Shown here: positions 20,751 to 45,159 of the stretch, piece after piece
How positions within the stretch are numbered: the stretch's first letter is position 1
Layout: every line of letters begins with the position of its first letter
Virus record (IMG/VR): IMGVR_UViG_3300029922_000001
Span: 230,512 to 294,511 of that record
Direction: 5' to 3' (one strand)
DNA length: 64,000 nt
From: a virus
Program-made: the position numbers and the translations under genes
The notes under the pieces: generated by a model
What the model saw: the letters and a program-made list of their open reading frames with translations, nothing else
Database searches by the model: none
What the model was told of the DNA's origin: nothing

Positions 20751-20931
20751 TGCGAATTGGGATTTCTATGGTGAATTTTGCGCCTGAGTTTATTAATTCA
20801 GTATTTGAGACGATTAATTTTAAAATATGATCAAATTCTTCTTTATTAATATCTTTATTTATTAATAAAAAACCAGCTTTCATCGCCATATCATATGCTT
20901 TGTTGTTGTTCATAAGTACTCGGAGGGGCAT
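20725..20931 (-). CDS. hypothetical small protein
   Basis: 68-aa ORF. Its annotated start overlaps the 3' end of tRNA 20924..21013, so the true start may be internal. Confidence 0.3.
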   Translation of the reverse strand: MPLRVLMNNNKAYDMAMKAGFLLINKDINKEEFDHILKLIVSNTELINSGAKFTIEIPIRNEKNSSQK

Positions 20932-21013
20932 ACTAGAATCAAACTAGTTCATAACGCATTTGCTAGATCATTAACCTAGCAGTGCGTCGCGATTCTCATT
21001 TCGCCAATGCCCC
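20924..21013 (-). tRNA. intron-containing class I tRNA; anticodon GCU with a canonical or 36/37 insert, or GCA (Cys) if the insert lies 1-2 nt upstream; discriminator U
   Basis: Perfect acceptor GGGGCAT/ATGCCCC. D-arm GCG/CGC. T-arm ACTAG-TTTGATT-CTAGT. Anticodon stem ACGCA/TGCGT flanks CTGCT + 17 nt + AA. The insert hairpin GCTAG..CTAGC pairs with the anticodon. Confidence 0.6.
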
Positions 21014-21023
21014 AAACTCTCGG

Positions 21024-21099
21024 AGCGCGGAGGGAGAATCGAACTCAACCGAATAATGGTTTTGCAGACCATTCCAATTAACCACTCTGGTACCCGCGC
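21024..21099 (-). tRNA. tRNA-Cys (GCA)
   Basis: Acceptor GCGCGGG/TCCGCGC. D-arm CCAG-AGTGGTTAA-TTGG. Perfect anticodon stem ATGGT/ACCAT with loop CTGCAAA. Discriminator U, then CC, then GAG. The T-stem is weak. Confidence 0.7.
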
Positions 21100-21121
21100 A
21101 TATTTATCTCGCTGAGGTTCT

Positions 21122-21802
21122 TTATACCTCATATTGCTTCATTAATTCTGGATCACTTTGAGCCGCTATCCATTTATCATATTCTTCAATTTGCTCTTTA
21201 ATTTGTTCAGCACTATCTGCTGTTTTAGATTGGCAACTTTTAATGTCGTTTAATTTACTAAATAATGATTCCACAAGAGGATGTTTTGGTAAATAACATA
21301 TTCCCTTAGAAGCATAATAATCAATTAATTCTTTTTGTTTAAGTTTTGATTCTAATTTATTTTCTTCTGAACATGAACACTTTGGATGAAATGCGTTATA
21401 CATTCTCATATCTTCAATTCTATTTTCTTCAGTGTAAGCACTACAATTAAACAAAATTTCATCATCTTTATCATCCAACTCTAACAGATTAATTAATTCT
21501 TTAATTTTATAAGTTGGTCGATTTTGCTTGTACCAATCCGATTTTTCGTTCTCTTGATTATTTATTAATAAATTCTGTTTTAATGATGGTATTAATTTTT
21601 CAAAAACCTCATGTAGTGTACTTCCTTTAATTTGCACTCTACCAGCAGGTTGAAAATTTAAATTAAATTTAATATTGCCTTTTTTGGACATTGTTAAAGT
21701 CATATGATTCGTTCCACCCATGTTACTTAATCCATCTGGACAATTTTGTAAAAACTCTTTTAATATTTTTAATGTTTTATCTATATTCATTTCCTTTACC
21801 AA
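21122..21802 (-). CDS. hypothetical protein
   Basis: 226-aa ORF. Confidence 0.5.
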   Translation of the reverse strand: MVKEMNIDKTLKILKEFLQNCPDGLSNMGGTNHMTLTMSKKGNIKFNLNFQPAGRVQIKGSTLHEVFEKLIPSLKQNLLINNQENEKSDWYKQNRPTYKIKELINLLELDDKDDEILFNCSAYTEENRIEDMRMYNAFHPKCSCSEENKLESKLKQKELIDYYASKGICYLPKHPLVESLFSKLNDIKSCQSKTADSAEQIKEQIEEYDKWIAAQSDPELMKQYEV

Positions 21803-22137
21803 GATATTGTTAACTGATAACTTTCATAACTTTCATATCCTTCGTATTCACGATCCTTTACAAGAACAACACCATATTCTTCGTCTTCAAAAAACTTTTT
21901 AACATTACAGGCAATTTGATAATTATATAATGTCTCCGTATGACATTCATACTCACCCCTTTTGGCATGTTTTTCAATTAATTTTTTACATTCATCAATG
22001 GTAGTTATTTCTAACTGTTGAAGTCGTAGTTTTTCAGATTGAGCGAATTGTCTTTCTTCTTCTTCAAGAGCAAGTCTTCTTGCTTCAATTTGTTCTTTAG
22101 CTTCTTGAGTTAATCTTCTTGCTTCTTGGATGTTCAT
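21796..22137 (-). CDS. hypothetical coiled-coil protein
   Basis: 113-aa ORF with a charged heptad-like N-terminus. Confidence 0.45.
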   Translation of the reverse strand: MNIQEARRLTQEAKEQIEARRLALEEEERQFAQSEKLRLQQLEITTIDECKKLIEKHAKRGEYECHTETLYNYQIACNVKKFFEDEEYGVVLVKDREYEGYESYESYQLTISW

Positions 22138-22145
22138 TGTAACTA

Positions 22146-22293
22146 TTATACCTTACGACGAATTCGTATGAGAGTATTATCTACTTCTTTTCTTGTGATA
22201 CCTAAAAAAGCAGCAATTGCACGATAAGATTTATTTAAACCATAAGCAATATAAACCTTGGTTTCATTTTGAGTTAATTCTAAATTATTCATA
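22146..22293 (-). CDS. small (about 48 aa) LuxR/sigma-70 region-4-type helix-turn-helix protein; not in the supplied ORF track
   Basis: Hand translation gives MNNLELTQNETKVYIAYGLNKSYRAIAAFLGITRKEVDNTLIRIRRKV. This matches the LuxR-type HTH consensus (LT..E..V......G.s..eIA..LgIs..TV...l.rI..Kl). Coordinates are +/-2 nt. Confidence 0.4.
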
Positions 22294-22318
22294 AGTGTAT
22301 TATAGCATATTTTCTCGC

Positions 22319-22407
22319 GGGAGCTTAGAGATTCGAACTCTAAAGGCGCTTTTTACACGCCTAGCTGTTTTCAAGACAGTTTACCGTCACCAATGGCAGA
22401 ACTCCCG
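22319..22407 (-). tRNA. tRNA-Ser (UGA), class II
   Basis: Acceptor GGGAGTT/AGCTCCC. Anticodon loop CTTGAAA. Variable arm GGCG-TGTAAAAAG-CGCC. T-arm TAGAG-TTCGAAT-CTCTA. Discriminator G, then CGAG. Confidence 0.7.
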
Positions 22408-22516
22408 TATTATTTCGCGGTAAGTAAAATATTCGAATTCGATTCAAAGAATATGAAGACAAACTTTGTTTAATTATTGATTCTATTTTAGGTAGACTTA
22501 ACAATTAAACATCTCG

Positions 22517-22602
22517 AAGACACCAGAATCGAACTGGACTCGCTTTTTACACGAGCGAACAACTTTCCAGGTTGCCGTCATCACCATCAGACATTATCTT
22601 CC
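22517..22602 (-). tRNA. tRNA-Ser (GGA), class II
   Basis: Acceptor GAAGATA/TGTCTTC. Anticodon stem GCAAC/GTTGT with loop CTGGAAA. Variable arm is homologous to that of the Ser(UGA) gene (..GTGTAAAAAGCG..). T-loop TTCGATT. Confidence 0.6.
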
Positions 22603-22615
22603 ATATTATCTCGGA

Positions 22616-22688
22616 GCGCCAAATTGGAATCGAACCAATTTCCTATTGCTTACCAAGCAATCGTTCACCCACATGAACTTTAAGCGCA
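22616..22688 (-). tRNA. tRNA-Thr (GGU)
   Basis: D-arm GTTC/GAAC. Perfect anticodon stem ATTGC/GCAAT with loop TTGGTAA. T-arm ATTGG-TTCGATT-CCAAT. U6:U67 mismatch in the acceptor stem. Discriminator T, then CC, then GAG. Confidence 0.7.
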
Positions 22689-22701
22689 TATATCTCGTGG
22701 A

Positions 22702-22772
22702 GGCTCAATAGAGAATCAAACTCTACTCTGCGGTTTACAAAACCGCTGCATCGTCACAATGCTTTAAAGCCA
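22702..22772 (-). tRNA. tRNA-Thr (UGU); CCA encoded (22699..22701)
   Basis: Acceptor GGCTTTA/TTGAGCC (U:U at 6:67). D-arm GCAT/ATGC. Anticodon stem GCGGT/ACCGC with loop TTTGTAA. T-arm TAGAG-TTTGATT-CTCTA. Confidence 0.7.
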
Positions 22773-22785
22773 TATTATCTCGTAA

Positions 22786-22884
22786 GCCTAGTATCTGATT
22801 CGAACAGATGATGTTTGTATTCTTACTTGTTCTATTTTTTAACACAACAAGGTAAGTGCAATCGACCGCTATGCAAACTAGGCA
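22786..22884 (-). tRNA. intron-containing tRNA (99 nt), probable anticodon UGU (Thr); duplicate of 22702..22772 carrying an insert
   Basis: Perfect acceptor GCCTAGT/ACTAGGC. T-arm ATCTG-TTCGAAT-CAGAT. Anticodon stem CTTAC/GTAAG flanks CTTGT + 18 nt + AA. The insert extends the anticodon helix (CTTGTT/AACAAG). Confidence 0.5.
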
Positions 22885-22898
22885 TTTTATCTCGTGGA

Positions 22899-22984
22899 GG
22901 AAGGCAGCGGGATCGAACCGCAGACGTATTTCAGTCCGTATAGTTTAGCAAACTATCCTAATCGCCGTTTTAGATTACCTTCCA
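22899..22984 (-). tRNA. tRNA-Ser (GCU), class II; CCA encoded (22896..22898)
   Basis: Acceptor GGAAGGT/GCCTTCC. Anticodon stem ATAGT/ACTAT with loop TTGCTAA. Long variable arm. T-loop TTCGATC. Confidence 0.65.
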
Positions 22985-22992
22985 TTATCTCG

Positions 22993-23076
22993 GCTAACGG
23001 GGAGATTCAAACTCCCGAAGGTTTTCACCGATGCATTACGAGTGCATTCCAATTGATCAACTATGGGACGTTAGCA
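22993..23076 (-). tRNA. class II-like tRNA with anticodon CGU (Thr by anticodon; identity uncertain)
   Basis: Perfect acceptor GCTAACG/CGTTAGC. Perfect anticodon stem ATGCA/TGCAT with loop CTCGTAA. Variable arm GGT-GAAA-ACC. T-arm GGGAG-TTTGAAT-CTCCC. Confidence 0.5.
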
Positions 23077-23399
23077 TTTAACATTTCTACATATCTAACT
23101 AAAACCTGACCGTGACACCTTTCTTGTTCGCCCCAACCAGTTTTAGGTCTACAAAAGCATACCAATTTTTTATTATGTAAGGATTTTACCTTATCTTTGA
23201 ATATTAAATCAGTTTCTAATCTATTTTTTAGATATTTTTCATATTCTGGTAAAGTAGAACTAGGAACTTGACCTGGAGATAATACTATTGGATTGCCAAA
23301 ATATCCACTCTGTCCTTTCCCTGCTCTACCTATGTAGACATATTCAGAATCTTGTTCCCAACCCTTGTTGAGATGATATAAATTTACTACTTCAGTCAT
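23061..23399 (-). CDS. DUF4326-like protein
   Basis: VYIGRAGKGQSGYFGNP ... KLVCFCRPKTGWGEQERCHGQVL matches the DUF4326 conserved core as recalled. Its 3' end overlaps the tRNA at 22993..23076 by about 16 nt. Confidence 0.5.
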   Translation of the reverse strand: MTEVVNLYHLNKGWEQDSEYVYIGRAGKGQSGYFGNPIVLSPGQVPSSTLPEYEKYLKNRLETDLIFKDKVKSLHNKKLVCFCRPKTGWGEQERCHGQVLVRYVEMLNANVP

Positions 23400-23952
23400 T
23401 GACTTCCTCTATATATGCTGGTGGCACATATTCTGTTAACCATACACCATTTTCAGAACGATAAAAAACAAATCTATTCAAATCCATTTGCTTTGAATCC
23501 ACCTTCAATAGTGCATACTTTCCTCTTCTAGAACCAACATTAATTGCTGTTTCTATGTTTTCAGAAAGATGAACCGCATGACGATACATCTTCTTAATTC
23601 CTTCCTCTAAAATCATTGGTACAGCATCATATGTTGTACCATGATAAAGAATGGCAGGAGGATTCAATGGAACTAACTGAAGATCAACTTCACAAGAATG
23701 ACCTTGATTGGCTCTAATTCTTGCTCCTGATTCATCATAAGAATATCTTTGCTTATTATTTTCCGTCACTAACTGATCTAAATCAGCCTTTGTGATGTTA
23801 ATATTAAACTTTTTCAAACCGTCTAATAGTTGTGTTACGAATACATAACCTCCAAGATCAAGCTTTTCAACTCCAATCTTTTGTGGCTCATGTCGCAATA
23901 TTAACGAAATAAACTTTCCTATTCTTTTAAATTCACGTTCATCCTTAATCAT
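23392..23952 (-). CDS. tpt1: RNA 2'-phosphotransferase Tpt1/KptA
   Basis: Canonical Tpt1 motifs: ISLILRHEPQKIG, ARIRANQGHS, LYHGT, RHAVHLS. Confidence 0.85.
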   Translation of the reverse strand: MIKDEREFKRIGKFISLILRHEPQKIGVEKLDLGGYVFVTQLLDGLKKFNINITKADLDQLVTENNKQRYSYDESGARIRANQGHSCEVDLQLVPLNPPAILYHGTTYDAVPMILEEGIKKMYRHAVHLSENIETAINVGSRRGKYALLKVDSKQMDLNRFVFYRSENGVWLTEYVPPAYIEEVND

Positions 23953-23974
23953 GTTCTTTTCCCTAACAATGCCC

Positions 23975-24505
23975 TTACTTTTTAGGTAAGAGCATTACTG
24001 TCATTTGTTTCCCTTGTAAGAGAATTTCCCTATCTACAGTTACAATATCATTTAGTTTTTCCAAACAATATTCCAACTTTTGCTTTCCAATATGAGGGTG
24101 AGCGAGTTCTTTTGTTTTGAACTTGCAAACCAACTGCACTTTGTCATGCTTCCCAATAAATTCAACCGCTTTACGAATTGACGTATCCAAGTCATGTACA
24201 GCCGTATTAGGGCTAATACAAAGTGTTTTAAGTTCTTGAGGCTTTTTACGGTTGTCTTTTGCACGTTTTGCCTCTTCATACTTATATTTGCCATAGCTTA
24301 CGATTTTGCAGATAGGTGGTTGTACCTTATCAGATACGCACAACAAATCTAAACCAGCATCATATGCTATTTGGATTGCATCCTTCGTGGGCATTACACC
24401 AATATTTTTGTTATTAGCGTCAATGACCGTTACTTCGGTAAATTGCTTAATGAGTCTTTCATTAAGGGGTGGGAATTCTCTGCGATTACTTTTTTTCATC
24501 ATCAT
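23975..24505 (-). CDS. infC: translation initiation factor IF3 (bacterial type)
   Basis: N-domain VTVIDANNKNIGVMPTKDAIQIAYDAGLDLLCVSDKVQPPICKIVSYGKYKYEE plus a C-domain. Matches the IF3 family end to end. Confidence 0.85.
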   Translation of the reverse strand: MMMKKSNRREFPPLNERLIKQFTEVTVIDANNKNIGVMPTKDAIQIAYDAGLDLLCVSDKVQPPICKIVSYGKYKYEEAKRAKDNRKKPQELKTLCISPNTAVHDLDTSIRKAVEFIGKHDKVQLVCKFKTKELAHPHIGKQKLEYCLEKLNDIVTVDREILLQGKQMTVMLLPKK

Positions 24506-24602
24506 AATAGATTGACCTATTATACCAGGGTATTCTTCTTCATTACAATCTTTCTCTATTCAATTTTCAATGTGCTTGAGTTTTAATTCTCGGTAAATAA
24601 AA

Positions 24603-24640
24603 AACAGGAAGTCCGACTTAGGTCTGTCGGACTTCCTGTT
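24603..24640. terminator. hairpin AACAGGAAGTCCGAC-(8 nt)-GTCGGACTTCCTGTT
   Basis: 15-bp perfect arms, unusually GC-rich for this sequence. Downstream of the minus-strand gene 24793..25326. Confidence 0.5.
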
Positions 24641-24792
24641 GAATCTTTCTATTTGGTTTTCTTTATGCTTGCCCGACAACAGCATTTCTACAGCTTCCAC
24701 AACTTGTGGAACTGGTAGTACTTGATGTTGATGTTGACGTGACTAATTTCATTTTAACCTGCTACGTTTATTATACCCAATGTTTTGATTGT

Positions 24793-25326
24793 TTACCATG
24801 TTTTTTTGCTTTTACCATCAAAACCTGTTTCTTTTAAGATTCTATCCCAAATTTCTTCTTTTGGAGTGTTCCCTAAATATGGATCTTTTGCCCAATTCAA
24901 GTTGGTAATTTCTAGTATAACAGGAAATGGTGGAGTATAGGCTTCAGCTTCTTCTAAAGAAGAAAATTCCATTTCCATACTAAGCAAATAATGTCTATGG
25001 ATCATATATTCATTAATTTCTTCACCGCTAGATAAAAAAGTTCTTCGTTTTTCAACTCTTTTCATTTTTGGTATTAAATTGTAATTATAAAACCAATTAA
25101 AAAGAAAAATTGGGATTTTAATATTGTATTCTTTTCTGACCAAAGGATCTGAGGTTTTTAATTTAAAAGTTAATTCGCATTTATTTGAAACTGAATATGT
25201 TTTACGAATGCGACAACTTTTAAAAAATGGAAAATATCCTTGTGAAATGTATACGTTGTGTGTTTGAGTATCCCAAGGAATATCATTTTGATTTACTATA
25301 AACTTGCGTTCAATTTCATTAGCCAT
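24793..25326 (-). CDS. hypothetical protein, member of a local tandem paralog family (MANEIERKFIV...)
   Basis: 177 aa. The N- and C-terminal halves recur separately in 25653..25886 and 25340..25600. Confidence 0.5.
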   Translation of the reverse strand: MANEIERKFIVNQNDIPWDTQTHNVYISQGYFPFFKSCRIRKTYSVSNKCELTFKLKTSDPLVRKEYNIKIPIFLFNWFYNYNLIPKMKRVEKRRTFLSSGEEINEYMIHRHYLLSMEMEFSSLEEAEAYTPPFPVILEITNLNWAKDPYLGNTPKEEIWDRILKETGFDGKSKKTW

Positions 25327-25339
25327 GCTTTAGTATACT

Positions 25340-25886
25340 TCATTTACCAGGACCCCACTCAAGACCAGGGAATTTATTTAAATTTTCCTCAATTTCTTTC
25401 CAGGGTGTGATTGATAGATATGGCTCTTTCGCCCAAGGCACATGTGTAATCTCTGTAACGTACTTGAAATCAGGAATATAAGCTTGTGCATCTTCCAGAG
25501 AATCAAATTCCATTTCTACGATTACATAATACTGACCAGGATATTCATTAATTTGTTCTCCTGTTGGAATAATGTGTCGTGTTTTTTTAGTTTTAGTCAT
25601 CCAAGGTGTAAGATACCAAAGCGGGAAAAAGACAAATTTAGGGATTTTAAAGTTATATTCCTTCCTGTCCTAAATTGGTCTGTTTATTCTTGTTTTTCTT
25701 GAATGTCAATTCGTATGTGCGGTCTTCATCTGAATATAATTCTTCATAGGTAATGATAGACTCACGAATTCTGAGATTTTTAATTAAAGGGAAATATCCT
25801 TGGGAAATGTCATGCCATTCTATAACATTTTCCCAAGGAATTTGGGTTGGTCGCACTATAAACTTGCGTTCAATTTCATTAGCCAT
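25340..25886 (-). pseudogene. disrupted paralog of 24793..25326, split into an N-terminal ORF (25653..25886) and a C-terminal ORF (25340..25600) in different frames
   Basis: The 31-nt string TATAAACTTGCGTTCAATTTCATTAGCCAT is identical at 25296..25326 and 25856..25886. C-terminal homology: EMEFDSLEDAQAY..PWAKEPYL versus EMEFSSLEEAEAY..NWAKDPYL. Confidence 0.45.
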
Positions 25887-25893
25887 ATGGCTA

Positions 25894-26883
25894 TTATACT
25901 TGAGCAAGTTCGGCTTGTAGCTCTTTAATGCGCTTTTGGAGTTCAAGTTTCTTTTTAAGTGTCGCTTCTTCTCTAAGCAAAGCTTGGAATTCAGCATCAA
26001 CTTCTTCCACTGCAACAGTCTCTAAAGCAACATGCTTCTTTATGGCTTTAGCTGCTTTAGGCATTTCTGTAGCCAAGATTGGTACATATCCTCTTAGTAT
26101 AAGAGTAAGACTTGTTGCATGATCTTCAATATCAATCCATTCTTTTTGACCAAAGGTTTGATTGGATCTGCTACCTTCAACAGTGCAAACATCTTGTTCT
26201 CTTGATTCATTTAAAGATTTTGGCATAGCATTCGCAAATGAGTCTAAAGAATCCATTGACATGCTTGAAGCGGAATATGTTGGAGAACCAAAGCTTAATG
26301 AATTCAGTGAATTTACTGAATCTGAGCATAATCCTCTTACATTGCTTTTCATGGAAGATTGACCAATTAAAGCATTATTACTACCACACCAGACTTCATC
26401 ATGTCGTCTAGGGTAATGCTTGTAAGGGTATGAATAATCACGATACCAAGGATATGAATAATCATGATAATGATGATGATCTACTACGATTGGAATGTAG
26501 ACTGGTTGTGGTTTTTCTTTTTCTAACCAGAAGAAGGCTTCAACAACACCTTTGGAGCGGTCTTCATTAGAACCATTTTTTCCAAAATCAATAGCGTCAT
26601 TACTGTCTAAAGCAGCTAATTTAAAGCATTTGTTGGTTTCATAGAAGCGTTCAAGATCAATTGCGCTGTTAGCGTTAATAATATATCCATCACCGGATAC
26701 ATTTTCCCCGTCAATATGAATTTTGACCAAGGCTCTACGATTGTTTTTGTTTCTGAGGCGTAAACTATATTCTGATCCGAATGGAACTAGTACAGAATGA
26801 TCGTTTCTCTCTGGGAGAAAGTCGTTTTGATTTTTGAGCTTGATAGCAAGCACGAAGTTTTTGTTATACATATTTTTAACCAT
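25894..26883 (-). CDS. hypothetical protein with His/Tyr-rich low-complexity segment and C-terminal coiled coil
   Basis: The ORF is open to 26949. An internal Met at about 26883 avoids overlapping the divergent PARP gene. Contains HHHYHDYSYPWYRDYSYPYKHY. Confidence 0.5.
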   Translation of the reverse strand: MVKNMYNKNFVLAIKLKNQNDFLPERNDHSVLVPFGSEYSLRLRNKNNRRALVKIHIDGENVSGDGYIINANSAIDLERFYETNKCFKLAALDSNDAIDFGKNGSNEDRSKGVVEAFFWLEKEKPQPVYIPIVVDHHHYHDYSYPWYRDYSYPYKHYPRRHDEVWCGSNNALIGQSSMKSNVRGLCSDSVNSLNSLSFGSPTYSASSMSMDSLDSFANAMPKSLNESREQDVCTVEGSRSNQTFGQKEWIDIEDHATSLTLILRGYVPILATEMPKAAKAIKKHVALETVAVEEVDAEFQALLREEATLKKKLELQKRIKELQAELAQV

Positions 26884-27081
26884 TATAATCCTAACTCTTG
26901 TCCTCATGAGAGCGTGATTCGGCACCTTAATGGCGAGTGCCAAGGACAATTCTATTATACACCCGTTTTGAGGTTTTTTACCTTCGGATTAAAAAACAGT
27001 CCAAACACAATAAAATTAATTATAATAAATTACCTTGTGAATAGGCTTGACAGTCTGAGGAATAGGAGGTATTATAACAAC

Positions 27082-28380
27082 ATGAGTAGCATTCTCGCTA
27101 GTAAGAAATACATTTATACGGATATCCAGGCGAATAACAATAAGTTCTGGAATATTGACCGCTATGACGATCATACAGTAATTACACGTTGGGGACGTGT
27201 TGGCGACAAAGAACAAAGCAAATCTTTCCCACATGGATCTGAAACTTCCGCAATTGCTTTTTTTAATCAAAAGTGTAGTGAAAAATCCAAGAAGGGTTAT
27301 ACCGAACAACGAACCATTGAATCCAATACTACCGTAAAGCAAACAACCGTTGCTTCATCCAATCTTGAAAGTATTGCTAAAAGACAGATTCAAACTAATT
27401 CACCTGAACTAGATGCTTTGATTTCAAGGCTTACCAAAGCTAACATTCATAGCATTGTCGCAAACAGTAATATTAGCTATAACGATACAACTGGTTTGTT
27501 TTCAACGCCATTAGGAATTATTGATGAAGATGCGATTTTGGAAGCTAGAGAACTTCTAGTGTCCATTAATTCTATTGTTCTCAATAGAGACTTTGGAAAT
27601 AAGGATTTTGCTGGAATCACCAATAAGTATTTTAGAATCGTTCCTACAGTTATCGGTAGATATCGTCAAGAACCTCAAGACCTATTCCCTAATAAGGAAA
27701 CCGTTGTAAAGCAAAATGATCTTTTGGACTCACTTGAAGTCAGCTTGCAAACTGCTAAGGCAACCCCTGTAACTGCTACAACATCTGTTGAACCTGAAAA
27801 GAACATCTTTAATGTTAAGCTTCATGTGGTTGATGATCTTCCTGTTATTCAACGAATTACAGCCAAATATCAATCAACAATGAATCGTGGTCATCAGTGT
27901 TCCCATCTTGGTGTTAAGCGTGTTTATGAATTAGAAATTGGTGCTATGAAGACTGCTTTCGAAAATAAGGGTAAGCAAATTGGTGGTATTCAAGAGTTGT
28001 GGCACGGTTCAAGAGTTGCCAATATTCTTTCTATTCTCTATAAGGGAATGATTATCCCACCTTCTAATTCTAGTTTTGTGGCTGGTCGTTTGTTTGGAGA
28101 CGGTTTGTATTTTGCCAACCAAAGCACAAAGTCTCTTAATTATTCTTATGGATATTGGGATGCTAAAGGCAAGGACGAAAATTGCTTTATGTTCCTTTGT
28201 GATGTAGCTATGGGCAAGCACTATACTCCTAAGTATTTACAATCCAATATTCCTGCTGGATATGATAGTTTCTGGGCTAAGGCTGGTATTTCTGGCGTAC
28301 AGAATGATGAAATCATCGTTCCACGTCTTTATCAAGCCAATCCTAGATATTTGATCGAATTCTCACCAGGTGGTAGATAA
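27082..28380 (+). CDS. poly(ADP-ribose) polymerase (WGR domain + PARP regulatory/catalytic domains)
   Basis: WGR domain FWNIDRYDDHTVITRWGRVGDKEQSKS. Catalytic region HGSRVANILSILYKGM ... GDGLYFANQSTKSLNYS ... E in the C-terminus. True ATG is at 27082; the longer track ORF from 26797 overlaps the neighbouring gene. Confidence 0.85.
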   Translation: MSSILASKKYIYTDIQANNNKFWNIDRYDDHTVITRWGRVGDKEQSKSFPHGSETSAIAFFNQKCSEKSKKGYTEQRTIESNTTVKQTTVASSNLESIAKRQIQTNSPELDALISRLTKANIHSIVANSNISYNDTTGLFSTPLGIIDEDAILEARELLVSINSIVLNRDFGNKDFAGITNKYFRIVPTVIGRYRQEPQDLFPNKETVVKQNDLLDSLEVSLQTAKATPVTATTSVEPEKNIFNVKLHVVDDLPVIQRITAKYQSTMNRGHQCSHLGVKRVYELEIGAMKTAFENKGKQIGGIQELWHGSRVANILSILYKGMIIPPSNSSFVAGRLFGDGLYFANQSTKSLNYSYGYWDAKGKDENCFMFLCDVAMGKHYTPKYLQSNIPAGYDSFWAKAGISGVQNDEIIVPRLYQANPRYLIEFSPGGR

Positions 28381-28414
28381 GATCAAGCCTGTTCTTGAGG
28401 TATAATAAATCATT

Positions 28415-28843: not shown

Positions 28844-28851
28844 AATAAAGT

Positions 28852-29780: not shown

Positions 29781-29792
29781 TGGTAAAATAAT

Positions 29793-29819: not shown

Positions 29820-29885
29820 CACTACAGCAAAAATCTATAATAATATTAAATATAGAAATTTAAAATTATATACACGAGTATAAAT

Positions 29886-36353: not shown

Positions 36354-36381
36354 TCAAGAATGATTGTGGTATACTGAAATC

Positions 36382-38087: not shown

Positions 38088-38286
38088 AACAGCAATAGAA
38101 ATGTCAATATAAGAAATTAATATATTCTTAGCCACTAAAGTATTTGGTTGGACTAACGTTAAAAAGAAACGCCCTTAATTTATGTAAGGCTTCTGTTAGA
38201 ACCTTGATTCTGTTTTCTTTTTTAGCAATATCGTCTGCTACTTTTTGTTTAAATATGATATTATCTAAGCAATTATTCATAGCCTA

Positions 38287-39183: not shown

Positions 39184-39204
39184 ATAAGCTATTGTAGCAT
39201 ATTT

Positions 39205-39651: not shown

Positions 39652-40196
39652 AGTTTATTATACTTAATCAGATTCTCTTCTTGTGTGATTTTATCCCAAG
39701 GTGCTTTAGATTGAAGAACTTTTTCAACAGTTGGATCATAATCCCAACGTTTAATCATATTTTGAATACTTTTAAGAGGTACACTATGTTGATTTCTTTT
39801 AGCTAATTCTTGTGCATCGAATTTCCAAGGTGTTTCAGGTTCATGAAAACTAACTTTATAATCATATTTTTGAGCAAGTTTTACGTACTCTCGAAATTCA
39901 TAAAAAGAACAATTTGTATTGTCACAAATAATAGGAGTAATACCTTGTTGCATTGCCACTTCAGTTCTTCTTTCATTTTCTTTATGATTTTCAGTTAGTT
40001 TATTAACATCAAATTTATATTCACCATTAACCATAAATAGATCATCAGTAGAATGAATAACTCCACCTTTTCCTAATTGCTTAGAAAGAAAACTTTTGCC
40101 AGAACCGGGAAGTCCGCGAATTATTCTTAACTCTTTTTCTTGTTGTGCTTTTCTATACCAAGTAGACATAATTCGATTATACCATTTTTCTATCAA
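39648..40196 (-). CDS. P-loop kinase (AAA_33 / polynucleotide-kinase-like)
   Basis: Walker A RGLPGSGKSFLSKQL and a downstream ICDNTN segment, consistent with a Walker B / Asp-containing lid. 182 aa. Confidence 0.6.
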   Translation of the reverse strand: MIEKWYNRIMSTWYRKAQQEKELRIIRGLPGSGKSFLSKQLGKGGVIHSTDDLFMVNGEYKFDVNKLTENHKENERRTEVAMQQGITPIICDNTNCSFYEFREYVKLAQKYDYKVSFHEPETPWKFDAQELAKRNQHSVPLKSIQNMIKRWDYDPTVEKVLQSKAPWDKITQEENLIKYNKL

Positions 40197-40884
40197 TAAT
40201 TTCTCTAGTAATATATCCAGTAAACTTCTGCCAAGATTTCCGCGTCATTTGTTTTCTTACTCTTTTATATAAAGAATGTTTCTTAATTGCTTTAGTTATT
40301 GCTTTACCATTGAGCTTAATAGAGTCAACATCAATGCACGACATAAAGCTTTTTGCTAAAGCTTGAACTTCTAGGGGATTGTTAAAATACGCATACTCTC
40401 CCATGTCATAGATGTTGATATATGTTTTGTCTTTACGTTTTTCTGTATACTCATTTTGAAAATTAGTAATATACAAATCATAATCAGCATGAAAATCTGG
40501 CACACATCCTGCTTGTAAACAGTGAACCAACTCATGTCCCAATCTATCAACATAATCTGCGAGACAATGACATTCACATATATCAAGATATATGTAATAG
40601 TACATATATCTTTCACCAAAACCGCTGGAATCATCATCTAAAAGAAATATTCTAATAGGATATTTAAACATTTTTAGTGAGTTTAACCAATTTTCTATTT
40701 CTAATAGTTTTCTTCTAAATTTATTACCATTAATGGAACTTTCTAATATACCAATACTTTCCTCAATACAAGGATGACGTTGTTTAACTGTTTTTGTTTT
40801 TATTTCACTTAATTTCCAATTAACTTCAATTAATCGTTTAGCTAATTCAACTTCAATTCCATGTGTATCGGGGATTTTAGGCAT
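40177..40884 (-). CDS. hypothetical protein with HExxH motif (possible zinc metallopeptidase)
   Basis: GHELVHCLQAG. Confidence 0.45.
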   Translation of the reverse strand: MPKIPDTHGIEVELAKRLIEVNWKLSEIKTKTVKQRHPCIEESIGILESSINGNKFRRKLLEIENWLNSLKMFKYPIRIFLLDDDSSGFGERYMYYYIYLDICECHCLADYVDRLGHELVHCLQAGCVPDFHADYDLYITNFQNEYTEKRKDKTYINIYDMGEYAYFNNPLEVQALAKSFMSCIDVDSIKLNGKAITKAIKKHSLYKRVRKQMTRKSWQKFTGYITREIIDRKMV

Positions 40885-40934
40885 AAACTCTTAAACTCTC
40901 TAACTCGTAAGCACCTTGTGGTGCTTTATTATAC

Positions 40935-41219
40935 TTATCGGTAAATATGAATGTGAGCAAAGGTTGGTTTATTGGTTAATGCTACTTCGTATTTCAAAAC
41001 ACAAGAATCTTCACCATCTTTCATGTGTTTGGCAGATATAATTTCTTTATCAATACCATCTTTTCCAGCAAGACGAATACCTGTTTGTTTAAGAGCGGCA
41101 GATTTGATAGCGTGTTGGAAAAATATATCAGCGTGTTGTGAATATCCTTCACGATCTAATCTAGCACTCATTTCTAAAATTAAATCTTGATTCATATAAC
41201 CAATATACGCAATCCACAA
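40935..41219 (-). CDS. hypothetical protein
   Basis: 94-aa ORF. Confidence 0.4.
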   Translation of the reverse strand: MWIAYIGYMNQDLILEMSARLDREGYSQHADIFFQHAIKSAALKQTGIRLAGKDGIDKEIISAKHMKDGEDSCVLKYEVALTNKPTFAHIHIYR

Positions 41220-41407
41220 TTAAAAACCTTTACAATAAAATATGGTTTCTAAGCGTAAAATACTCAAAGTAATAAATAGAGAAATTAGAATAGTCAACTC
41301 TAATATACAAAGATGTAGTTCAAAAAGTAGCTATTTGAGACTTATGACACGTAAAATTCTCTTAATTAATTATCAACACAAATTACAATAATTCTTATAA
41401 TACAATT

Positions 41408-41800
41408 ATGGAAAATACAAATAAAATCCCTAAAGAAATTAAGATCGTAAAAGTTGGTAGTGACGATTATCCTGCATCTGAAGCAGATTTAGAAGCAGTT
41501 CAAGAAGAATTAGCCGCATTAGCTAACGATCCCACATTGCCTAAAACTAATAAATATAAAACTCAAACCATTAAACCTTCCGGTAAAGGTGAAAAACAAA
41601 TTTTATTTGTTAAACTTGGTAATAGACATCGTTATGCCAGTGAGTCAGACCTGGATTCAGTAAGGGAAGAAATACTTAAATCATTAAAAGATTTAAAAAA
41701 TGATAATCTACTCACCTGGGTCGTACCTCATGATTTTAACATCAAAATTCTCAATGTTGATTCACAAGATGATATTGAAGTAAAAGTTGAACGCGGATAA
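41408..41800 (+). CDS. hypothetical protein
   Basis: 130-aa ORF preceded by CTTATAATACAATT-ATG. Confidence 0.45.
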   Translation: MENTNKIPKEIKIVKVGSDDYPASEADLEAVQEELAALANDPTLPKTNKYKTQTIKPSGKGEKQILFVKLGNRHRYASESDLDSVREEILKSLKDLKNDNLLTWVVPHDFNIKILNVDSQDDIEVKVERG

Positions 41801-42151
41801 TTACCAAATAAGAGTTGCATAAGTTATGTCATCTTCAGTCCAATAATGGACTTCGTAGCCCATAATAGCCATTTCTGCGGCAAATAAACTACCATCATCA
41901 TGAGTTGCGTAAGTTGGTTGACTGATTGTTATTTTCCGTTTACCAGCTTGTGCTGCTCCACTAATTCGCTTAAAAACCGATGCAAAACGTTGTTCGATTT
42001 GTTCCTGACGTTGTTTCTTTTCTATTACAGGAATTGCTGTCACTTTTGGCATTAATCCTCTAGCTTCTTTGGCTTTCATATCATTATTGTACTTATAATA
42101 GAGATATGAAGCCATTATGGACAGATAGAGATCGTAGCCCAAGTGAACCAA
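41801..42151 (-). CDS. hypothetical protein
   Basis: 116-aa ORF. Confidence 0.4.
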   Translation of the reverse strand: MVHLGYDLYLSIMASYLYYKYNNDMKAKEARGLMPKVTAIPVIEKKQRQEQIEQRFASVFKRISGAAQAGKRKITISQPTYATHDDGSLFAAEMAIMGYEVHYWTEDDITYATLIW

Positions 42152-42456
42152 ATTTCACAGATTATACCTATGTGTATTTTCAAGGTCATAAAATTGGAGA
42201 AATTAAAGATTGCATAAGTTATTCTTTAACTCCATATTTAAATGAAGCTGAAATTGATGACATTGATCATATTTGCACTTTTACTATTATAAATCAATAT
42301 AAAGAATATGATCAAAAGTGTATAGAAATTGTAGATGAATGCGGAAGATATTACAACATGCATAATGAAATAATACAACTTGGATTAAAGGCTAAAATTC
42401 AACAGTTAGGTGAATTGTATGCAAATGAAACTAAAAAGATGGCTACTGTTGTATAA
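42106..42456 (+). CDS. hypothetical protein
   Basis: 116-aa ORF. Confidence 0.4.
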   Translation: MKPLWTDRDRSPSEPNFTDYTYVYFQGHKIGEIKDCISYSLTPYLNEAEIDDIDHICTFTIINQYKEYDQKCIEIVDECGRYYNMHNEIIQLGLKAKIQQLGELYANETKKMATVV

Positions 42457-42764
42457 ACAGTAGCATGGATATTTTAGATAGATACAGTAAAGATACTATA
42501 GATTATGTGCTATTAACTGACGTATGCAAATCCGCAATACTCGACACCATTTTTCAGATGGTAGATAGAGGGGCACCAGATGAAGAGATTCTTGATGATA
42601 TCAGGCAATTAAGAGAAAGATATCTAAGTATTCGTTAAATTATGTAACAAATTAGGATTGCGGAATCCTAGTTAATATGGAACAAAATCTATTAACCATT
42701 CATATCAATCGTCTTCAAAAACTTATTCAAATGAACGCACCTGATTTTATCATAGAACAAGAGG

Positions 42765-43439
42765 TTAAATTATTACTCTCACTTTGGGTTTAACCCAAAG
42801 TGACTCAATAGTAAAATAAACAACAATACCTAAAGCTGGATTAATTTCATATTCATGCTCTCCATCTTCATTTATAACAGGTTGATCATTATCATCATAT
42901 AAATAAATATGCCCACGAACATCATCGGCAGGTAAACATTTAATTTTACTAACTTGTAAATCACCATAAACTTGTATATTTTTACATACGGCTTCACGGT
43001 GAGCATCCTCAAACATGTTTAAGCCATCATCAAATAGTAATTCTTGGCGATTGTAACCAGCCTGATTAAGTGTTTGATAAATATAAACATCTAATTGTCT
43101 AGATAAGCTTCTAATGGCTTTATTTGCACTAGACTCACTAAATAAAGCACCCATTCTTTCATCCCAAGGCAAATCACACTTTGGATCACGCATTCTTACT
43201 GCTAATGAACATGCTATTTCAATAGGTTTAATACTGTCTAAGTCTATTGTTTTAATTTGTTGTGGTATATGAAAGCGACTATTAGATAATGCCACAACGT
43301 CCATATTAATATATGAAGAATCTATGACTGTTAAAATACTTTTCCAAGTGTTGGTAATACCATCAAATTTTTCTTGAATAACTAATTCCTGTTGTTTAGT
43401 TGCTTCAATCCTATCATTTACATTTTTAAAGTAATTCAT
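42765..43439 (-). CDS. hypothetical protein
   Basis: 224-aa ORF. Confidence 0.5.
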   Translation of the reverse strand: MNYFKNVNDRIEATKQQELVIQEKFDGITNTWKSILTVIDSSYINMDVVALSNSRFHIPQQIKTIDLDSIKPIEIACSLAVRMRDPKCDLPWDERMGALFSESSANKAIRSLSRQLDVYIYQTLNQAGYNRQELLFDDGLNMFEDAHREAVCKNIQVYGDLQVSKIKCLPADDVRGHIYLYDDNDQPVINEDGEHEYEINPALGIVVYFTIESLWVKPKVRVII

Positions 43440-44302
43440 ATATTATTATAAGTCATTTTATAATCATAATCATAAGCCTTAAACCACTTCCTGATAGCAT
43501 TATCACTAACTCCATATTTCTTACCAATCTTAACCATTGATAAAGTTTTGTAATCTTCAATTAATTGTTCTAATGATGGTCTTTCTGCTTTTCGTGTATT
43601 TAATGCACGATCTTGTGAGTTTGGTAATACAATATTAAAGTATTTACATATTCTTATAATTTTACTTTCAGAACATTTAAATTGTTTGCCAATTAATTTT
43701 AATCCATTTTTATTAATCAATTGTTGGAGTTCTTCTTTGGTTAAATTATTATCATCTACCCAAATTTTATAATCTTTTTTTTGTCTTTCTTTAACCTCTT
43801 TTATTGATAAATGTTTTGCCCATAATTTGTTTTTAGATCCAAAATTATCAGTTTGACTATGACAGTTAGGACATAAAAATCTTAAATTATCTTGTGTATT
43901 ATGAGTGTAGTTTCCATCAACATGATCAACGTGTAATGTTATTTTCTTTCCTAACCAATCTTTATTGACAAAACATTCACTACCTTCACACTCATAAGGT
44001 CTTCCAGTTTCAATAAGAGCCCTAGTTAATAATTTAGATGATACTCTGTTATTTCCAAATTTTATATTTACTAAAATATCTTCGGCAGTTTTACGATTTA
44101 CACTTTTCTTGCCTCTCATCCAGTTTTCACTATTGAAATGGTCTGTATTAATATTAAAATAATTAACTCTACGTTTAATGTGTGTTTGGCTACCACCAGC
44201 TTGTACAATATTTAGATTTCTTAAAACCCCTGCATAGGAAAAACTTTTATTTACCGCTTCTTCTAATATGTCTTTTGTGTATTTTTCTTTATATTTTCTC
44301 AT
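43436..44302 (-). CDS. HNH homing-endonuclease-like protein
   Basis: HVDHVDGNYTHNTQDNLRFLCPNCHSQTD (HNH core), plus a C-terminal DNA-binding-like region. Lies directly next to the tRNA-Leu array. Confidence 0.7.
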   Translation of the reverse strand: MRKYKEKYTKDILEEAVNKSFSYAGVLRNLNIVQAGGSQTHIKRRVNYFNINTDHFNSENWMRGKKSVNRKTAEDILVNIKFGNNRVSSKLLTRALIETGRPYECEGSECFVNKDWLGKKITLHVDHVDGNYTHNTQDNLRFLCPNCHSQTDNFGSKNKLWAKHLSIKEVKERQKKDYKIWVDDNNLTKEELQQLINKNGLKLIGKQFKCSESKIIRICKYFNIVLPNSQDRALNTRKAERPSLEQLIEDYKTLSMVKIGKKYGVSDNAIRKWFKAYDYDYKMTYNNI

Positions 44303-44381
44303 ACTATTAATATACTGGAAGATACACTAAATTACCTTTAATTAAAGGTATAGGTTCAAATTTATAATAAAATTTATCTCG

Positions 44382-44462
44382 TACTAGGAAAGGGACTCGA
44401 ACCCTCAAGGATCATTCGTTCTTAACGAAGTGGGTCTGCCATTTCCCATTATCCACCCTAGC
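44382..44462 (-). tRNA. tRNA-Leu-like (anticodon AAG), atypical: about 5 extra nt between acceptor stem and D-arm; possible pseudogene or duplicate of 44983..45068
   Basis: Acceptor GCTAGGG/TCCTAGT. Anticodon loop TTAAGAA. T-arm GAGGG-TTCGAGT-CCCTT. The 5' half does not fit the canonical 9-nt spacing. Confidence 0.4.
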
Positions 44463-44475
44463 ATATTAATCTCGG

Positions 44476-44557
44476 TACTAGAGAAGGGATTCGAACCCTC
44501 AAGGATTTTTGTTTCTAAAACAAAACGGTCTACCGATTCCACGTTATCCACCCTAGC
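44476..44557 (-). tRNA. tRNA-Leu-like (anticodon UAG), atypical 5' half; possible pseudogene or duplicate of 44872..44973
   Basis: Shares its first 14 nt (GCTAGGGTGGATAA) with 44382..44462. Anticodon stem TTTGT/ACAAA with loop TTTAGAA. T-loop TTCGAAT. Confidence 0.4.
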
Positions 44558-44567
44558 ATTTATCTCG

Positions 44568-44651
44568 TCCCGGCGAGTGGACTCGAACCACCACGCCCTT
44601 TCAGGCAACAGATTTTGAGTCTGCCGCATCTACCAATTACACCACACCGGG
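44568..44651 (-). tRNA. tRNA-Leu (CAA), class II
   Basis: Acceptor CCCGGTG/CGCCGGG. Anticodon stem GCAGA/TCTGT with loop CTCAAAA. Variable arm GCC-TGAAAG-GGC. T-arm GGTGG-TTCGAGT-CCACT. Discriminator A, then CGAG. Confidence 0.75.
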
Positions 44652-44871
44652 ATATTTCTCGTATAAGAAATTAATTCTTATTTTGTGAATCAAGTTGTCT
44701 TACTCTACTAAATAAAGCATCTCTCATTTCTTTGTTTTCACTTACTTCTTTAGCGTATGCACCCATCATATTTCTAAACATTTTTTGACCTTCTTCAGTA
44801 TTCATTGCTGATTCAATTATTTTCATTTTTTCAGGACTTGTTATAATCATATTAATTCTCCAATATCTCGG

Positions 44872-44973
44872 TGAGCAAACAGGGACTTGAACCCTGATGA
44901 CATTTTACTGTCGATGGGTTAGCAAAATTCTGATCTTGCTAAGCCCATTGCGTCTACATTTCGCCATTCGCCC
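44872..44973 (-). tRNA. intron-containing tRNA-Leu (UAG), class II, 102 nt with an 18-nt insert in the anticodon loop
   Basis: Acceptor GGGCGAA/TTTGCTC. Anticodon stem ATGGG/CCCAT flanks CTTAG + 18 nt + AA. The insert forms the TTAGCAA/TTGCTAA helix with the anticodon. Variable arm GACA-GTAAAA-TGTC. T-arm CAGGG-TTCAAGT-CCCTG. Confidence 0.55.
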
Positions 44974-44982
44974 ATATTCTCG

Positions 44983-45068
44983 TGCGGAGTAAAAGATTTG
45001 AACTTTCACCTGTTGATAAGACAGAATGGGACCTTAGCCCATCGCGGCTACCATTACGCCAACCCCGC
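44983..45068 (-). tRNA. tRNA-Leu (AAG), class II
   Basis: Acceptor GCGGGGT/ACTCCGC. D-arm GCG/CGC. Perfect anticodon stem ATGGG/CCCAT with loop CTAAGGT. Variable arm CTGT-CTTATCA-ACAG. T-arm GAAAG-TTCAAAT-CTTTT. Confidence 0.75.
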
Positions 45069-45077
45069 ATATTCTCG

Positions 45078-45159
45078 TCCGGGCGAGAGGGTTTGAACCT
45101 CCATGTCTTGCGACGGCAGGTTTTAAACCTGCTGCGGCTACCAATTTCGCCACACCCGG
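45078..45159 (-). tRNA. tRNA-Leu (UAA), class II
   Basis: Acceptor CCGGGTG/CGCCCGG. Anticodon stem GCAGG/CCTGC with loop TTTAAAA. Variable arm GTC-GCAA-GAC. T-arm GGAGG-TTCAAAC-CCTCT. Confidence 0.75.

Follow-up and report, generated by a model that had tools for sequence, protein, structure and literature searches.

Short hairpin inserts in the anticodon loops of tRNA genes from a very large bacteriophage: candidate introns with a common junction geometry

Introduction

A 64,000-nucleotide stretch of viral DNA (IMG/VR record IMGVR_UViG_3300029922_000001, positions 230,512–294,511; the whole stretch is termed the window here) carries arrays of tRNA genes, and four of these genes are interrupted in the anticodon loop by a short insert. 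The question raised by this locus is what becomes of such inserts. Protein-dependent tRNA splicing counts as a hallmark of archaea and eukaryotes and, to our knowledge, the tRNA introns of bacteria and their viruses are known only as self-splicing group I ribozymes.

Seven insert-bearing genes are compared here, four from the window and three from a related phage. The inserts are read as short introns that proteins would excise and re-ligate, a reading that we hold with about as much belief as doubt. New elements are a testable cut-site rule, a pair of alleles that confirms one of the junctions, signs of insert movement between genes and genomes, and a link to RNA-repair genes, including the RNA 2′-phosphotransferase Tpt1.

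Insert-bearing tRNA genes and the junction rule

All seven genes have an intact cloverleaf, and the sole anomaly is a lengthened anticodon arm. In minimum-free-energy folds the insert pairs with the anticodon in every case, and the helix so formed continues the stack of the anticodon stem, in most cases with a bulged C32. The arms have 5–10 pairs stacked on the 5-bp anticodon stem and are continuous helices with at most C32 bulged; those of the window tRNA-Leu and of the tRNA-Phe of the related phage have 10 uninterrupted pairs each. In five of the seven genes the arm has a z-score between −4.8 and −6.5 (in the window −5.0 for Leu, −5.0 for Thr, −4.8 for Cys and −6.5 for Gly), and the two tRNA-Asn arms of the related phage give −2.8 and −1.2.

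With its intron option, ARAGORN places the four window genes at c[15377,15482], c[20922,21013], c[22785,22883] and c[44870,44973], with inserts of 31, 17, 18 and 18 nt, and names them Pro-AGG, Cys-GCA, Val-AAC and Arg-UCU. Three of these four names disagree with the tRNA bodies, because the anticodon that is read depends on where the insert is cut. Isotypes of the bodies were judged by identity rules known from E. coli. The gene at 15.4 kb displays U73, C2-G71 and G3-C70, which points to a tRNA-Gly; the gene at 44.9 kb has a long variable arm and A73, which point to a tRNA-Leu; and the gene at 22.8 kb has G1-C72, C2-G71 and U73, as in the other Thr tRNAs of this phage. The interrupted tRNA-Cys has U73.

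For each gene, every way to restore a 7-nt anticodon loop was enumerated and the offset of the two cuts across the helix was computed. Only with a stagger of 2 bp do all seven genes yield the isotype that their bodies and neighbouring genes lead one to expect. In this geometry the two 3′-terminal bases of the 5′ exon are paired with the two 3′-terminal bases of the insert. The same stagger gives U33 and a purine at position 37 in every gene, and the restored loops are identical, or nearly so, to those of insert-free (here termed clean) paralogues, e.g. CTGCAAA and CTGTTAA. Staggers of 0 or 4 lead to wrong isotypes or to a pyrimidine at position 37. For the tRNA-Phe and for one of the two tRNA-Asn genes (Asn-i1) the 2-bp stagger is the unique solution.

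The predicted junctions lie at 36/37 in Leu, Thr and Gly and at 35/36 in Cys, Phe and Asn. The interrupted loops of the window genes are CTTAG-insert-AA (Leu), CTTGT-insert-AA (Thr), CTGC-insert-AAA (Cys) and TTGCC-insert-AA (Gly). The predicted spliced sequences, with ^ at the junction, are GGGCUUAG^AACCCAU for Leu, GCGUUGCC^AACGC for Gly, ACCUUGU^AAGUAAG for Thr and CGCACUGC^AAAUGCG for Cys. If the cuts are where the sequence places them, the common geometry would have the polarity of RNase III, i.e. 2-nt 3′ overhangs. A 2-bp offset with 3′ overhangs is the mark of a dimeric nuclease that cuts across the RNA minor groove, RNase III being the textbook case.

An insert-free allele in a related phage

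Relatives were found by scanning metagenomes for a T-arm followed by the motif CGAGA, a spacer described below. The scan yielded one true relative, L015 (GC 32%, eight motif copies), whose RNA ligase in turn gave access to a second large phage in two strains, L048 (a 295-kb scaffold) and L049 (the same strain as L015). Both share the architecture of the window: the arrays are on the minus strand, grouped by amino acid and punctuated by CGAGA. The L048 arrays hold four tRNAs for Asn, four for Asp, three to four for Phe and two to three for Trp.

L049 has at least three interrupted genes, one tRNA-Phe and two tRNA-Asn (Asn-i1 and Asn-i2), of which ARAGORN mislabelled one as Cys and one as Ser. 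According to the rule obtained from the window genes, the “Cys” gene should be a tRNA-Phe(GAA) cut at CTGA^...^AGA. The orthologous tRNA-Phe of L048 lacks the insert and has the loop CTGAAAA, and its body is identical but for one stem base. In a MAFFT alignment the predicted junction and the 18-nt gap coincide exactly (CTGA^AAA in L048 against CTGA-TAGGTTTTTAAATCTATC-AGA in L049). The two alleles are a true presence/absence polymorphism and confirm one junction (35/36) independently.

The multi-copy tRNAs of L048 (6169–6598 and 14933–15802, minus strand) comprise about four divergent genes each for Asn(GUU), Asp(GUC) and Phe(GAA), with the same anticodon within each set. They measure 72–90 nt, and among them are a tRNA-Asn whose extra arm is long and a unit with only 6 nt in its anticodon loop.

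Insert families and covariation

The Cys insert of the window, TAGGTTAATGATCTAGC, and the Phe insert of L049, TAGGTTTTTAAATCTATC, have both helix arms in common (TAGGTT...ATCTA), and the tRNA bodies and the genomes that carry them differ. Base pairing with position 35 covaries between the two (C35-G versus A35-U). Asn-i1 and Asn-i2 share AGGAnCTACGGT, and their stems are kept by two double substitutions, A1-U21/A2-U20 in one and U1-A21/G2-C20 in the other.

No stand-alone copies of the inserts are present in about 150 kb of fetched sequence; the inserts are thus not a high-copy palindromic element or dispersed repeat. Together with the insert families and the covariation, this argues that the hairpins are under selection and have spread between tRNA genes, and, as the Cys and Phe inserts indicate, between genomes.

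Footprints of DNA transposition (P-nucleotides, target-site duplication) were considered as a source and rejected, since the inserts are too small and display no direct repeats. IS200/IS605 insertion was rejected on the same grounds, despite two TnpB genes nearby.

Organization of the tRNA arrays

The window has 17 tRNA units, all on the minus strand (Table 1): 11 clean, four insert-bearing and two aberrant Leu-like units. ARAGORN at default settings reports 11 tRNA genes and a transfer-messenger RNA (tmRNA), and misses both the insert-bearing genes and the aberrant units. Rfam (RF00005) reaches threshold for six of the 11 clean genes and for two of the four insert-bearing ones, seen as two matches that span about 100 nt and contain a large insertion (15380–15482 and 44872–44973). 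The aberrant units are detected only below normal tRNA thresholds.

Table 1. Features of the window referred to in the text, in order of position
Position	Strand	Feature	Detection and remarks
8760..8833	-	tRNA-Ile(UAU), clean	ARAGORN, Rfam; same CCA-CGAGA trailer
15377..15482	-	tRNA-Gly(GCC) with 31-nt insert	Rfam, intron-aware ARAGORN; insert 15416-15446; outside the range of the sequence-only reading
20924..21013	-	tRNA-Cys(GCA) with 17-nt insert, array 1	Intron-aware ARAGORN; insert 20962-20978, TAGGTTAATGATCTAGC
21022..21099	-	tRNA-Cys(GCA), clean, array 1	ARAGORN
22317..22406	-	tRNA-Ser(UGA), last unit of array 2	ARAGORN
22407..22514	-	108-nt gap in array 2 with T-arm-like remnant	By reading the sequence
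22515..22601	-	tRNA-Ser(GGA), array 2	ARAGORN
22613..22687	-	tRNA-Thr(GGU), clean, array 2	ARAGORN, Rfam
22698..22771	-	tRNA-Thr(UGU), clean, array 2	ARAGORN, Rfam; CCA encoded
22785..22883	-	tRNA-Thr(UGU) with 18-nt insert, array 2	Intron-aware ARAGORN; insert 22829-22846, TGTGTTAAAAAATAGAAC
22895..22983	-	tRNA-Ser(GCU), array 2	ARAGORN
22992..23075	-	tRNA-Thr(CGU), 84 nt, atypical, first unit of array 2	ARAGORN
23392..23952	-	RNA 2′-phosphotransferase (Tpt1/KptA)	PF01885; some 320 nt upstream of array 2 and on its strand
43436-44302	-	HNH endonuclease	Flanks array 3 on the side opposite TnpB
44382..44462	-	Aberrant Leu-like unit, anticodon AAG, array 3	
44474..44557	-	Aberrant Leu-like unit, anticodon UAG, array 3	Lowered ARAGORN threshold only, miscalled Lys
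44567..44651	-	tRNA-Leu(CAA), clean, array 3	ARAGORN, Rfam
44671..44850	-	59-aa open reading frame inside array 3	Between interrupted tRNA-Leu(UAG) and tRNA-Leu(CAA); no family match
44872..44973	-	tRNA-Leu(UAG) with 18-nt insert, array 3	Rfam, intron-aware ARAGORN; insert 44921-44938, CAAGATCAGAATTTTGCT
44982..45068	-	tRNA-Leu(AAG), clean, array 3	ARAGORN, Rfam
45077..45159	-	tRNA-Leu(UAA), clean, first unit of array 3	ARAGORN, Rfam
45193..45225	-	Intrinsic-terminator-like hairpin	15-bp stem and T-run; directly upstream of array 3
45418-46764	+	TnpB (IS605 OrfB / Cas12f-like)	Adjoins array 3
51206-52018	+	GIY-YIG/NUMOD3 homing endonuclease	Near array 3
52685-53794	-	TnpB, second copy (IS605 OrfB / Cas12f-like)	
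55247..55696	+	cREC_REC, “cyclic-phosphate processing receiver” domain protein	RNA-repair context domain
57372..58250	+	Polynucleotide kinase-phosphatase (PNKP)	AAA_33 kinase and HAD_PNKP phosphatase
58569-59789, 59948-61045	-	Two adjacent paralogous capsid-like genes	phrog_2522
63063-63417	+	tmRNA, phage-encoded	ARAGORN tag peptide GKSYAYVG; Rfam 62.9 bits (sensitive search)

The tRNA genes are grouped by amino-acid family, Cys in array 1, Ser and Thr in array 2 and Leu in array 3. The grouping is non-random, and it recurs in the related phages. The arrays are best explained as short minus-strand transcription units in which the isoacceptors of one family stand together. The strong terminator-like hairpin upstream of array 3 marks this array as a transcription unit of its own; sigma-70-type promoters around the arrays were not found above chance. 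The open reading frame encoding a DUF4326 protein (23061–23399, minus strand), downstream of Tpt1, ends 15 nt inside tRNA-Thr(CGU), so that gene and array overlap.

A reading of the window from its letters and open reading frames (the sequence-only reading) had described family-wise clusters with clean and insert-bearing isoacceptors side by side. Both features are seen in the tRNA predictions: ARAGORN calls ten of the genes at the positions and with the anticodons given in that reading, and its default and intron options together show the paired arrangement. Anticodons of the clean genes agree; the atypical members are missed by default, and the insert-bearing ones are found with the intron option. 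The assignments Thr(UGU) and Leu(UAG) for two of the interrupted genes hold by the criteria of body, neighbours and 2-bp rule, but the interrupted Cys gene, for which GCU had also been offered, has GCA. The Leu anticodons AAG and UAG do occur twice each, as had been noted; UAG however has no canonical copy, one unit being insert-bearing and the other aberrant. The Leu units that had been described as aberrant in their 5′ half are real, though they fall below normal tRNA thresholds.

Both aberrant Leu-like units are without the long variable arm and have 5–6 extra bases (GATAA(C)) between the acceptor and D stems. They are 76% identical to each other, and their anticodon-stem changes are compensatory; the structure thus seems to be maintained. 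RNAalifold applied to the two units gave no trustworthy fold. The bases GGAT at positions 9–12 could pair with ATCC of the variable region.

The sequence-only reading had also taken the tRNA supply to match a very AT-rich codon usage. This match is weak. In 79 open reading frames TTA accounts for 42% of Leu codons and ACG for 7% of Thr codons, and the arrays cover all codons of Leu, Ser and Thr, with Thr-CGU for the rare ACG and with Leu-CAA. They are complete decoding sets and not an AT-codon supplement.

That reading further suggested a recent local duplication as the origin of each pair of clean and insert-bearing genes, with intron gain, loss or decay afterwards. The partners are indeed adjacent and have the same anticodon, and the two aberrant Leu-like units resemble each other as noted. 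Insert gain or loss on short timescales also finds support, since the same tRNA-Phe is present with the 18-nt insert in L049 and without it in L048. In an all-against-all comparison, however, the interrupted and clean Cys genes are 61% identical, the interrupted and clean Thr(UGU) genes 59%, and the interrupted Leu(UAG) gene and the aberrant UAG unit 63%. This range of 59%–63% is no higher than the identity between unrelated tRNAs of the window (mean 59%, standard deviation 4%). The partners must accordingly be old duplicates or unrelated, and some other cause has to account for the grouping by amino acid; a duplicate pair is suggested for the two aberrant Leu-like units only. Recent duplication is thus quite improbable as the origin of the pairs, and the identities of the three window pairs contradict it. 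Simple decay is likewise a poor fit with seven inserts that obey one rule, intact cloverleaves and compensatory changes.

There are signs of turnover in the arrays. The T-arm-like remnant in the gap of array 2 is probably a decayed tRNA unit, judging from its sequence. In L049 a chimeric Asp unit (10911–11000, minus strand) has a first segment of 14 nt (CCCTACGGAGACTG) that copies the preceding unit, and its acceptor stem cannot pair as a result. The remnants in the window and in L049 suggest that the arrays recombine and decay quickly.

This turnover bears on a different explanation, namely that the inserts are disabling insertions in redundant tRNA copies and that the interrupted genes are young pseudogenes, never matured, in fast-changing arrays. 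There is a same-anticodon partner near the Cys, Thr and Leu genes (for Leu only the aberrant UAG unit, and for Gly none in the window). Wreckage is present in the form of the array 2 remnant, the chimeric Asp unit and the aberrant Leu-like units, an insert is polymorphic between L048 and L049, and no excision enzyme was found in the window. Random events, however, would not share a single junction geometry in seven of seven genes, nor would they restore U33, a purine at 37 and the anticodon of the family. Compensatory changes between homologous inserts would be unexpected, and the rest of the cloverleaf would not stay untouched. In addition, inserts of this kind are found in two phage genomes and again in the megaphage Lak-A1 (see below). 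Disabling insertion is therefore considered unlikely, although it keeps appreciable weight.

The CGAGA spacer

Each of the 17 tRNA units is followed, 0–3 nt past the discriminator base or CCA, by CGAG(A) and an A/T-rich stretch (e.g. 22604–22613, 22688–22697 and 44558–44567). The same spacer is found in L048 and L049, and CGAG(A) also lies 5′ of two tRNAs that have an upstream open reading frame. The spacer probably serves as a signal for endonucleolytic processing. Within open reading frames, read on the sense strand, CGAGA is observed 8 times, against 18.0 ± 3.6 expected from synonymous shuffling, and is the rarest of its 30 permutations. It may be a processing-endonuclease site that mRNAs avoid.

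The 59-aa open reading frame within array 3 has a CGAGA spacer on both sides, as if it had been inserted into, or had replaced, a tRNA unit.

Source genome and host

The window is part of a 521,591-bp metagenomic phage contig (ENA ERZ27248709, contig k141_1408874), and its genes, among them those for capsid-like proteins, a lysozyme, homing endonucleases, TnpB and translation, mark the virus as a very large bacteriophage (~520 kb) of a bacterium. Hallmarks of a bacterial host in the window are initiation factor IF3, the tmRNA, a GH108 lysozyme (a peptidoglycan hydrolase), Shine-Dalgarno sites and an HK97-type capsid protein. Genes for translation are dense (IF3, a class II aminoacyl-tRNA synthetase and the tmRNA), and stop-codon usage is standard. 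The tmRNA was missed by a first Rfam scan of the whole window at the gathering threshold. The only match of the capsid protein, and the nearest cultured one, is the major head protein of Bacillus phage G (22% identity).

IF3, tmRNA, the lysozyme and the Shine-Dalgarno sites point to a bacterial host, and in such a host we know of no cellular tRNA-splicing machinery that would be expected. An archaeal or eukaryotic host, whose splicing endonuclease would remove the inserts as ordinary introns, would account for the presence of Tpt1, and short anticodon-loop inserts with anticodon-intron pairing are typical of those domains. This is scarcely credible here: besides the bacterial hallmarks, which include the capsid protein nearest to that of Bacillus phage G, there is no bulge-helix-bulge, the helices being continuous, and the junctions are at 35/36 or 36/37 and not at 37/38.

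RNA-repair genes and other neighbours

Three genes of RNA repair are found in the window (Table 1). Tpt1 is encoded just upstream of array 2, and PNKP and the cREC protein are 10–12 kb from array 3. Between the arrays of the related phage there are genes for a 185-aa RNA ligase (PF09414), for a CYTH protein and for a phosphatase of the HAD_SAK_2 type. In more distant relatives a ligase is embedded among tRNA genes that carry no inserts, and the repair kit thus cannot be specific to splicing. These distant relatives (L043, L053, L055 and L058; GC 41%–47%), to which the RNA ligase led, carry numerous clean tRNAs and lack both CGAGA and inserts. In two of them RtcB and Ro60/TROVE proteins are encoded amid the tRNA genes (L043, 1940–3151 and 13416–14744; L055, 15028–16635), which adds further functions of RNA repair and quality control to those that accompany phage tRNA islands.

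The substrate of Tpt1 in bacteria and phages is a long-standing puzzle. In this phage the enzyme could serve nucleic-acid ADP-ribosylation rather than dephosphorylation of splice junctions. Of the Tpt1 homologues followed, one is on a related 129-kb contig (L008) that has no tRNAs near the gene, and another sequence reached in this way (L011) was set aside as a bacterial chromosome. The window has other enzymes of ADP-ribose chemistry besides Tpt1: a PARP-like protein with WGR, PARP regulatory and PARP catalytic domains (26797–28380, plus strand) and a NADAR protein (18430–18942, minus strand).

The tRNA island is ringed by mobile nucleases, i.e. the two TnpB proteins, the HNH endonuclease and the GIY-YIG/NUMOD3 homing endonuclease. 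Elsewhere, among small open reading frames, a 106-nt direct repeat is present (19101–19206 and 19611–19716, 92% identical, 510 nt apart).

Searches for further relatives gave little. Megablast and blastn of the arrays against GenBank phages yielded generic tRNA matches only, IMG/VR searches with the neighbouring proteins gave no relatives, and two motif scans of IMG/VR gave chance matches only, without tRNAs. A further 8 kb to the left of the window has no tRNA, ligase or RNase III.

Proposed excision of the inserts

In the proposed scheme the insert would pair with the anticodon in the transcript and prolong the anticodon stem into a hairpin of about 10–16 bp. An endonuclease would then cut both strands of the helix at sites offset by 2 bp, and an RNA ligase of the phage RNA-repair kit would reseal the 7-nt loop. 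Excision by staggered cuts followed by ligation is proposed because the 2-bp stagger is that of the RNase III removal of rRNA hairpins. The purpose might be to mask the anticodon from host anticodon nucleases until phage enzymes mature the tRNA. Phage tRNAs are shaped by host tRNA-targeting defences and anticodon nucleases (PMC10264068, PMC11555353), and the multiple divergent copies per anticodon, clearest in L048, would fit such shaping.

The inserts might also be retained. The products would then be tRNA-shaped, non-decoding RNAs with a masked anticodon, acting as decoys for anticodon nucleases or tRNA-binding defences, or as regulators. Stable helices under selection are consistent with this, as is the shaping of phage tRNAs by the host defences cited above, and no endonuclease was found in the window. 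Decoys, however, need neither an exactly restorable 7-nt loop with the anticodon of the family nor the full set of identity elements in the acceptor stem, and the insert-free allele in L048 is an ordinary tRNA-Phe. A paired anticodon would moreover block charging by synthetases that read the anticodon, those for Thr, Cys, Gly, Asn and Phe being of this type. Retention as decoys or regulators is accordingly regarded as rather improbable.

Several observations weigh against protein-based excision. Among about 120 open reading frames of the window there is no RNase III, no splicing endonuclease (EndA/Sen; PF01974/PF02778) and no RNA ligase. The helices are short for a classical RNase III, with 5–10 bp above the anticodon stem and cuts 1–6 bp from the loop. 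The enzyme inferences also disagree: Tpt1, PNKP and cREC point to 2′,3′-cyclic phosphate ends, RNase III to 3′-OH and 5′-phosphate ends. Five of the seven genes allow several cuts that give the expected anticodon, so that the rule is pinned by the two unambiguous cases and by consistency, and Asn-i2, the gene with the arm z-score of −1.2, has one G-G mismatch in its exon-insert pairing. Detection is biased, in that intron-aware tRNA finders search the anticodon loop only. Lastly, an insert-free copy with the same anticodon is nearby for at least three of the four window genes (Cys, Thr and, as the aberrant UAG unit only, Leu), and loss of function in the insert-bearing genes would therefore be tolerated.

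The wider proposal is that this megaphage lineage runs its own protein-based tRNA splicing, in which horizontally spreading hairpin introns would mask the anticodon, a double-strand-specific endonuclease would excise them by RNase III-like cuts with a 2-nt stagger, the RNA-repair ligase would seal the exons, and PNKP, cREC and Tpt1 would handle the RNA ends. It is put forward tentatively, and we lean somewhat against it as a whole. If it is true, it provides a natural substrate for the enigmatic Tpt1 of bacteria and phages, and tRNA maturation would be phage-dependent and resistant to host anticodon nucleases.

Should excision itself be confirmed, it would represent a new RNA-processing pathway and a new tactic in the phage-host conflict over tRNAs. 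Standard finders would then under-call and misname the tRNAs of megaphages (three of four were given a wrong anticodon here). Should excision not be confirmed, the arrays still show that tRNA genes arise and are lost unusually fast in giant phages.

Comparison with known systems

The protein-spliced introns of archaea and eukaryotes (EndA/TSEN; RtcB or Trl1; Tpt1) resemble the inserts in being short, in their location in the anticodon loop and in the pairing between anticodon and intron. Their removal also needs an endonuclease and a ligase. Of the corresponding kit, the window has Tpt1, PNKP and cREC; a ligase and HAD_SAK_2 are found in the relative only. The differences are the canonical 37/38 position, as against 35/36 or 36/37 here, and the absence of an EndA/Sen homologue from the window open reading frames. 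Bulge-helix-bulge introns (3-nt bulge, 4-bp helix, 3-nt bulge) were rejected, since the predicted arms are continuous helices. We know of no protein-based tRNA splicing pathway in bacteria.

The intervening sequences of 23S rRNA are hairpins excised by RNase III with staggered cuts that leave 2-nt 3′ overhangs. As in the tRNA genes described here, an extended hairpin replaces the loop of a structural RNA and is sporadic between strains and gene copies. The rRNA fragments, however, are left unjoined and the ribosome works in pieces, whereas a tRNA cut in the anticodon loop needs re-ligation. Typical RNase III substrates, moreover, have longer helices than those in the window.

Group I introns were rejected: their ribozymes require at least about 200 nt, the inserts have only 17–31 nt, and Rfam matches in the window are tRNA and tmRNA only. 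They are nevertheless similar in their location in the anticodon loop of bacterial-type tRNAs and in their mobility between genes. Examples in bacterial and phage tRNA genes are those of cyanobacterial tRNA-Leu(UAA), Azoarcus tRNA-Ile and Patescibacteria (PMC3984707, PMC13011429).

Phage T4 also has clustered tRNA genes, and its enzymes Pnkp and Rnl1 heal and seal breaks in the anticodon loop (PMC10264068, PMC11555353). The T4 tRNAs are without inserts. The phages described here differ further in having several divergent copies per anticodon arranged by amino-acid family, a conserved spacer motif and masked anticodons. Literature searches turned up neither short hairpin introns in phage tRNAs nor a route by RNase III plus ligase.

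The nearest precedent is the “enigmatic” tRNA introns of the Lak megaphages (~540 kb), which lie in the anticodon loop, have conserved intron sequences and occur as intron-plus and intron-minus alleles, their mechanism being given as unknown (Devoto et al., bioRxiv 10.1101/356790; later Nat Microbiol 2019). The likeness is that of a phage of more than 500 kb that has anticodon-loop inserts in tRNA genes, its relatives (here L048) having insert-free alleles. The preprint text gives no structural rule for the junctions (bioRxiv 10.1101/356790). In the Lak-A1 genome, which was fetched whole, six genes are called interrupted. One of them, a tRNA-Thr(UGU) with a 114-nt insert, displays the same C32 bulge, anticodon-insert helix and 2-bp stagger; the others differ in kind from the window inserts. 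Most of the Lak inserts exceed those of the window in length (up to 114 nt; one has a tRNA-like fold), and they are heterogeneous, some being in the variable arm and some without an anticodon-insert helix. The Lak lineage has a GC content of 26%, is recoded and has a Prevotella host; its tRNA genes are without CGAGA punctuation, and its inserts have no sequence similarity to those of the window.

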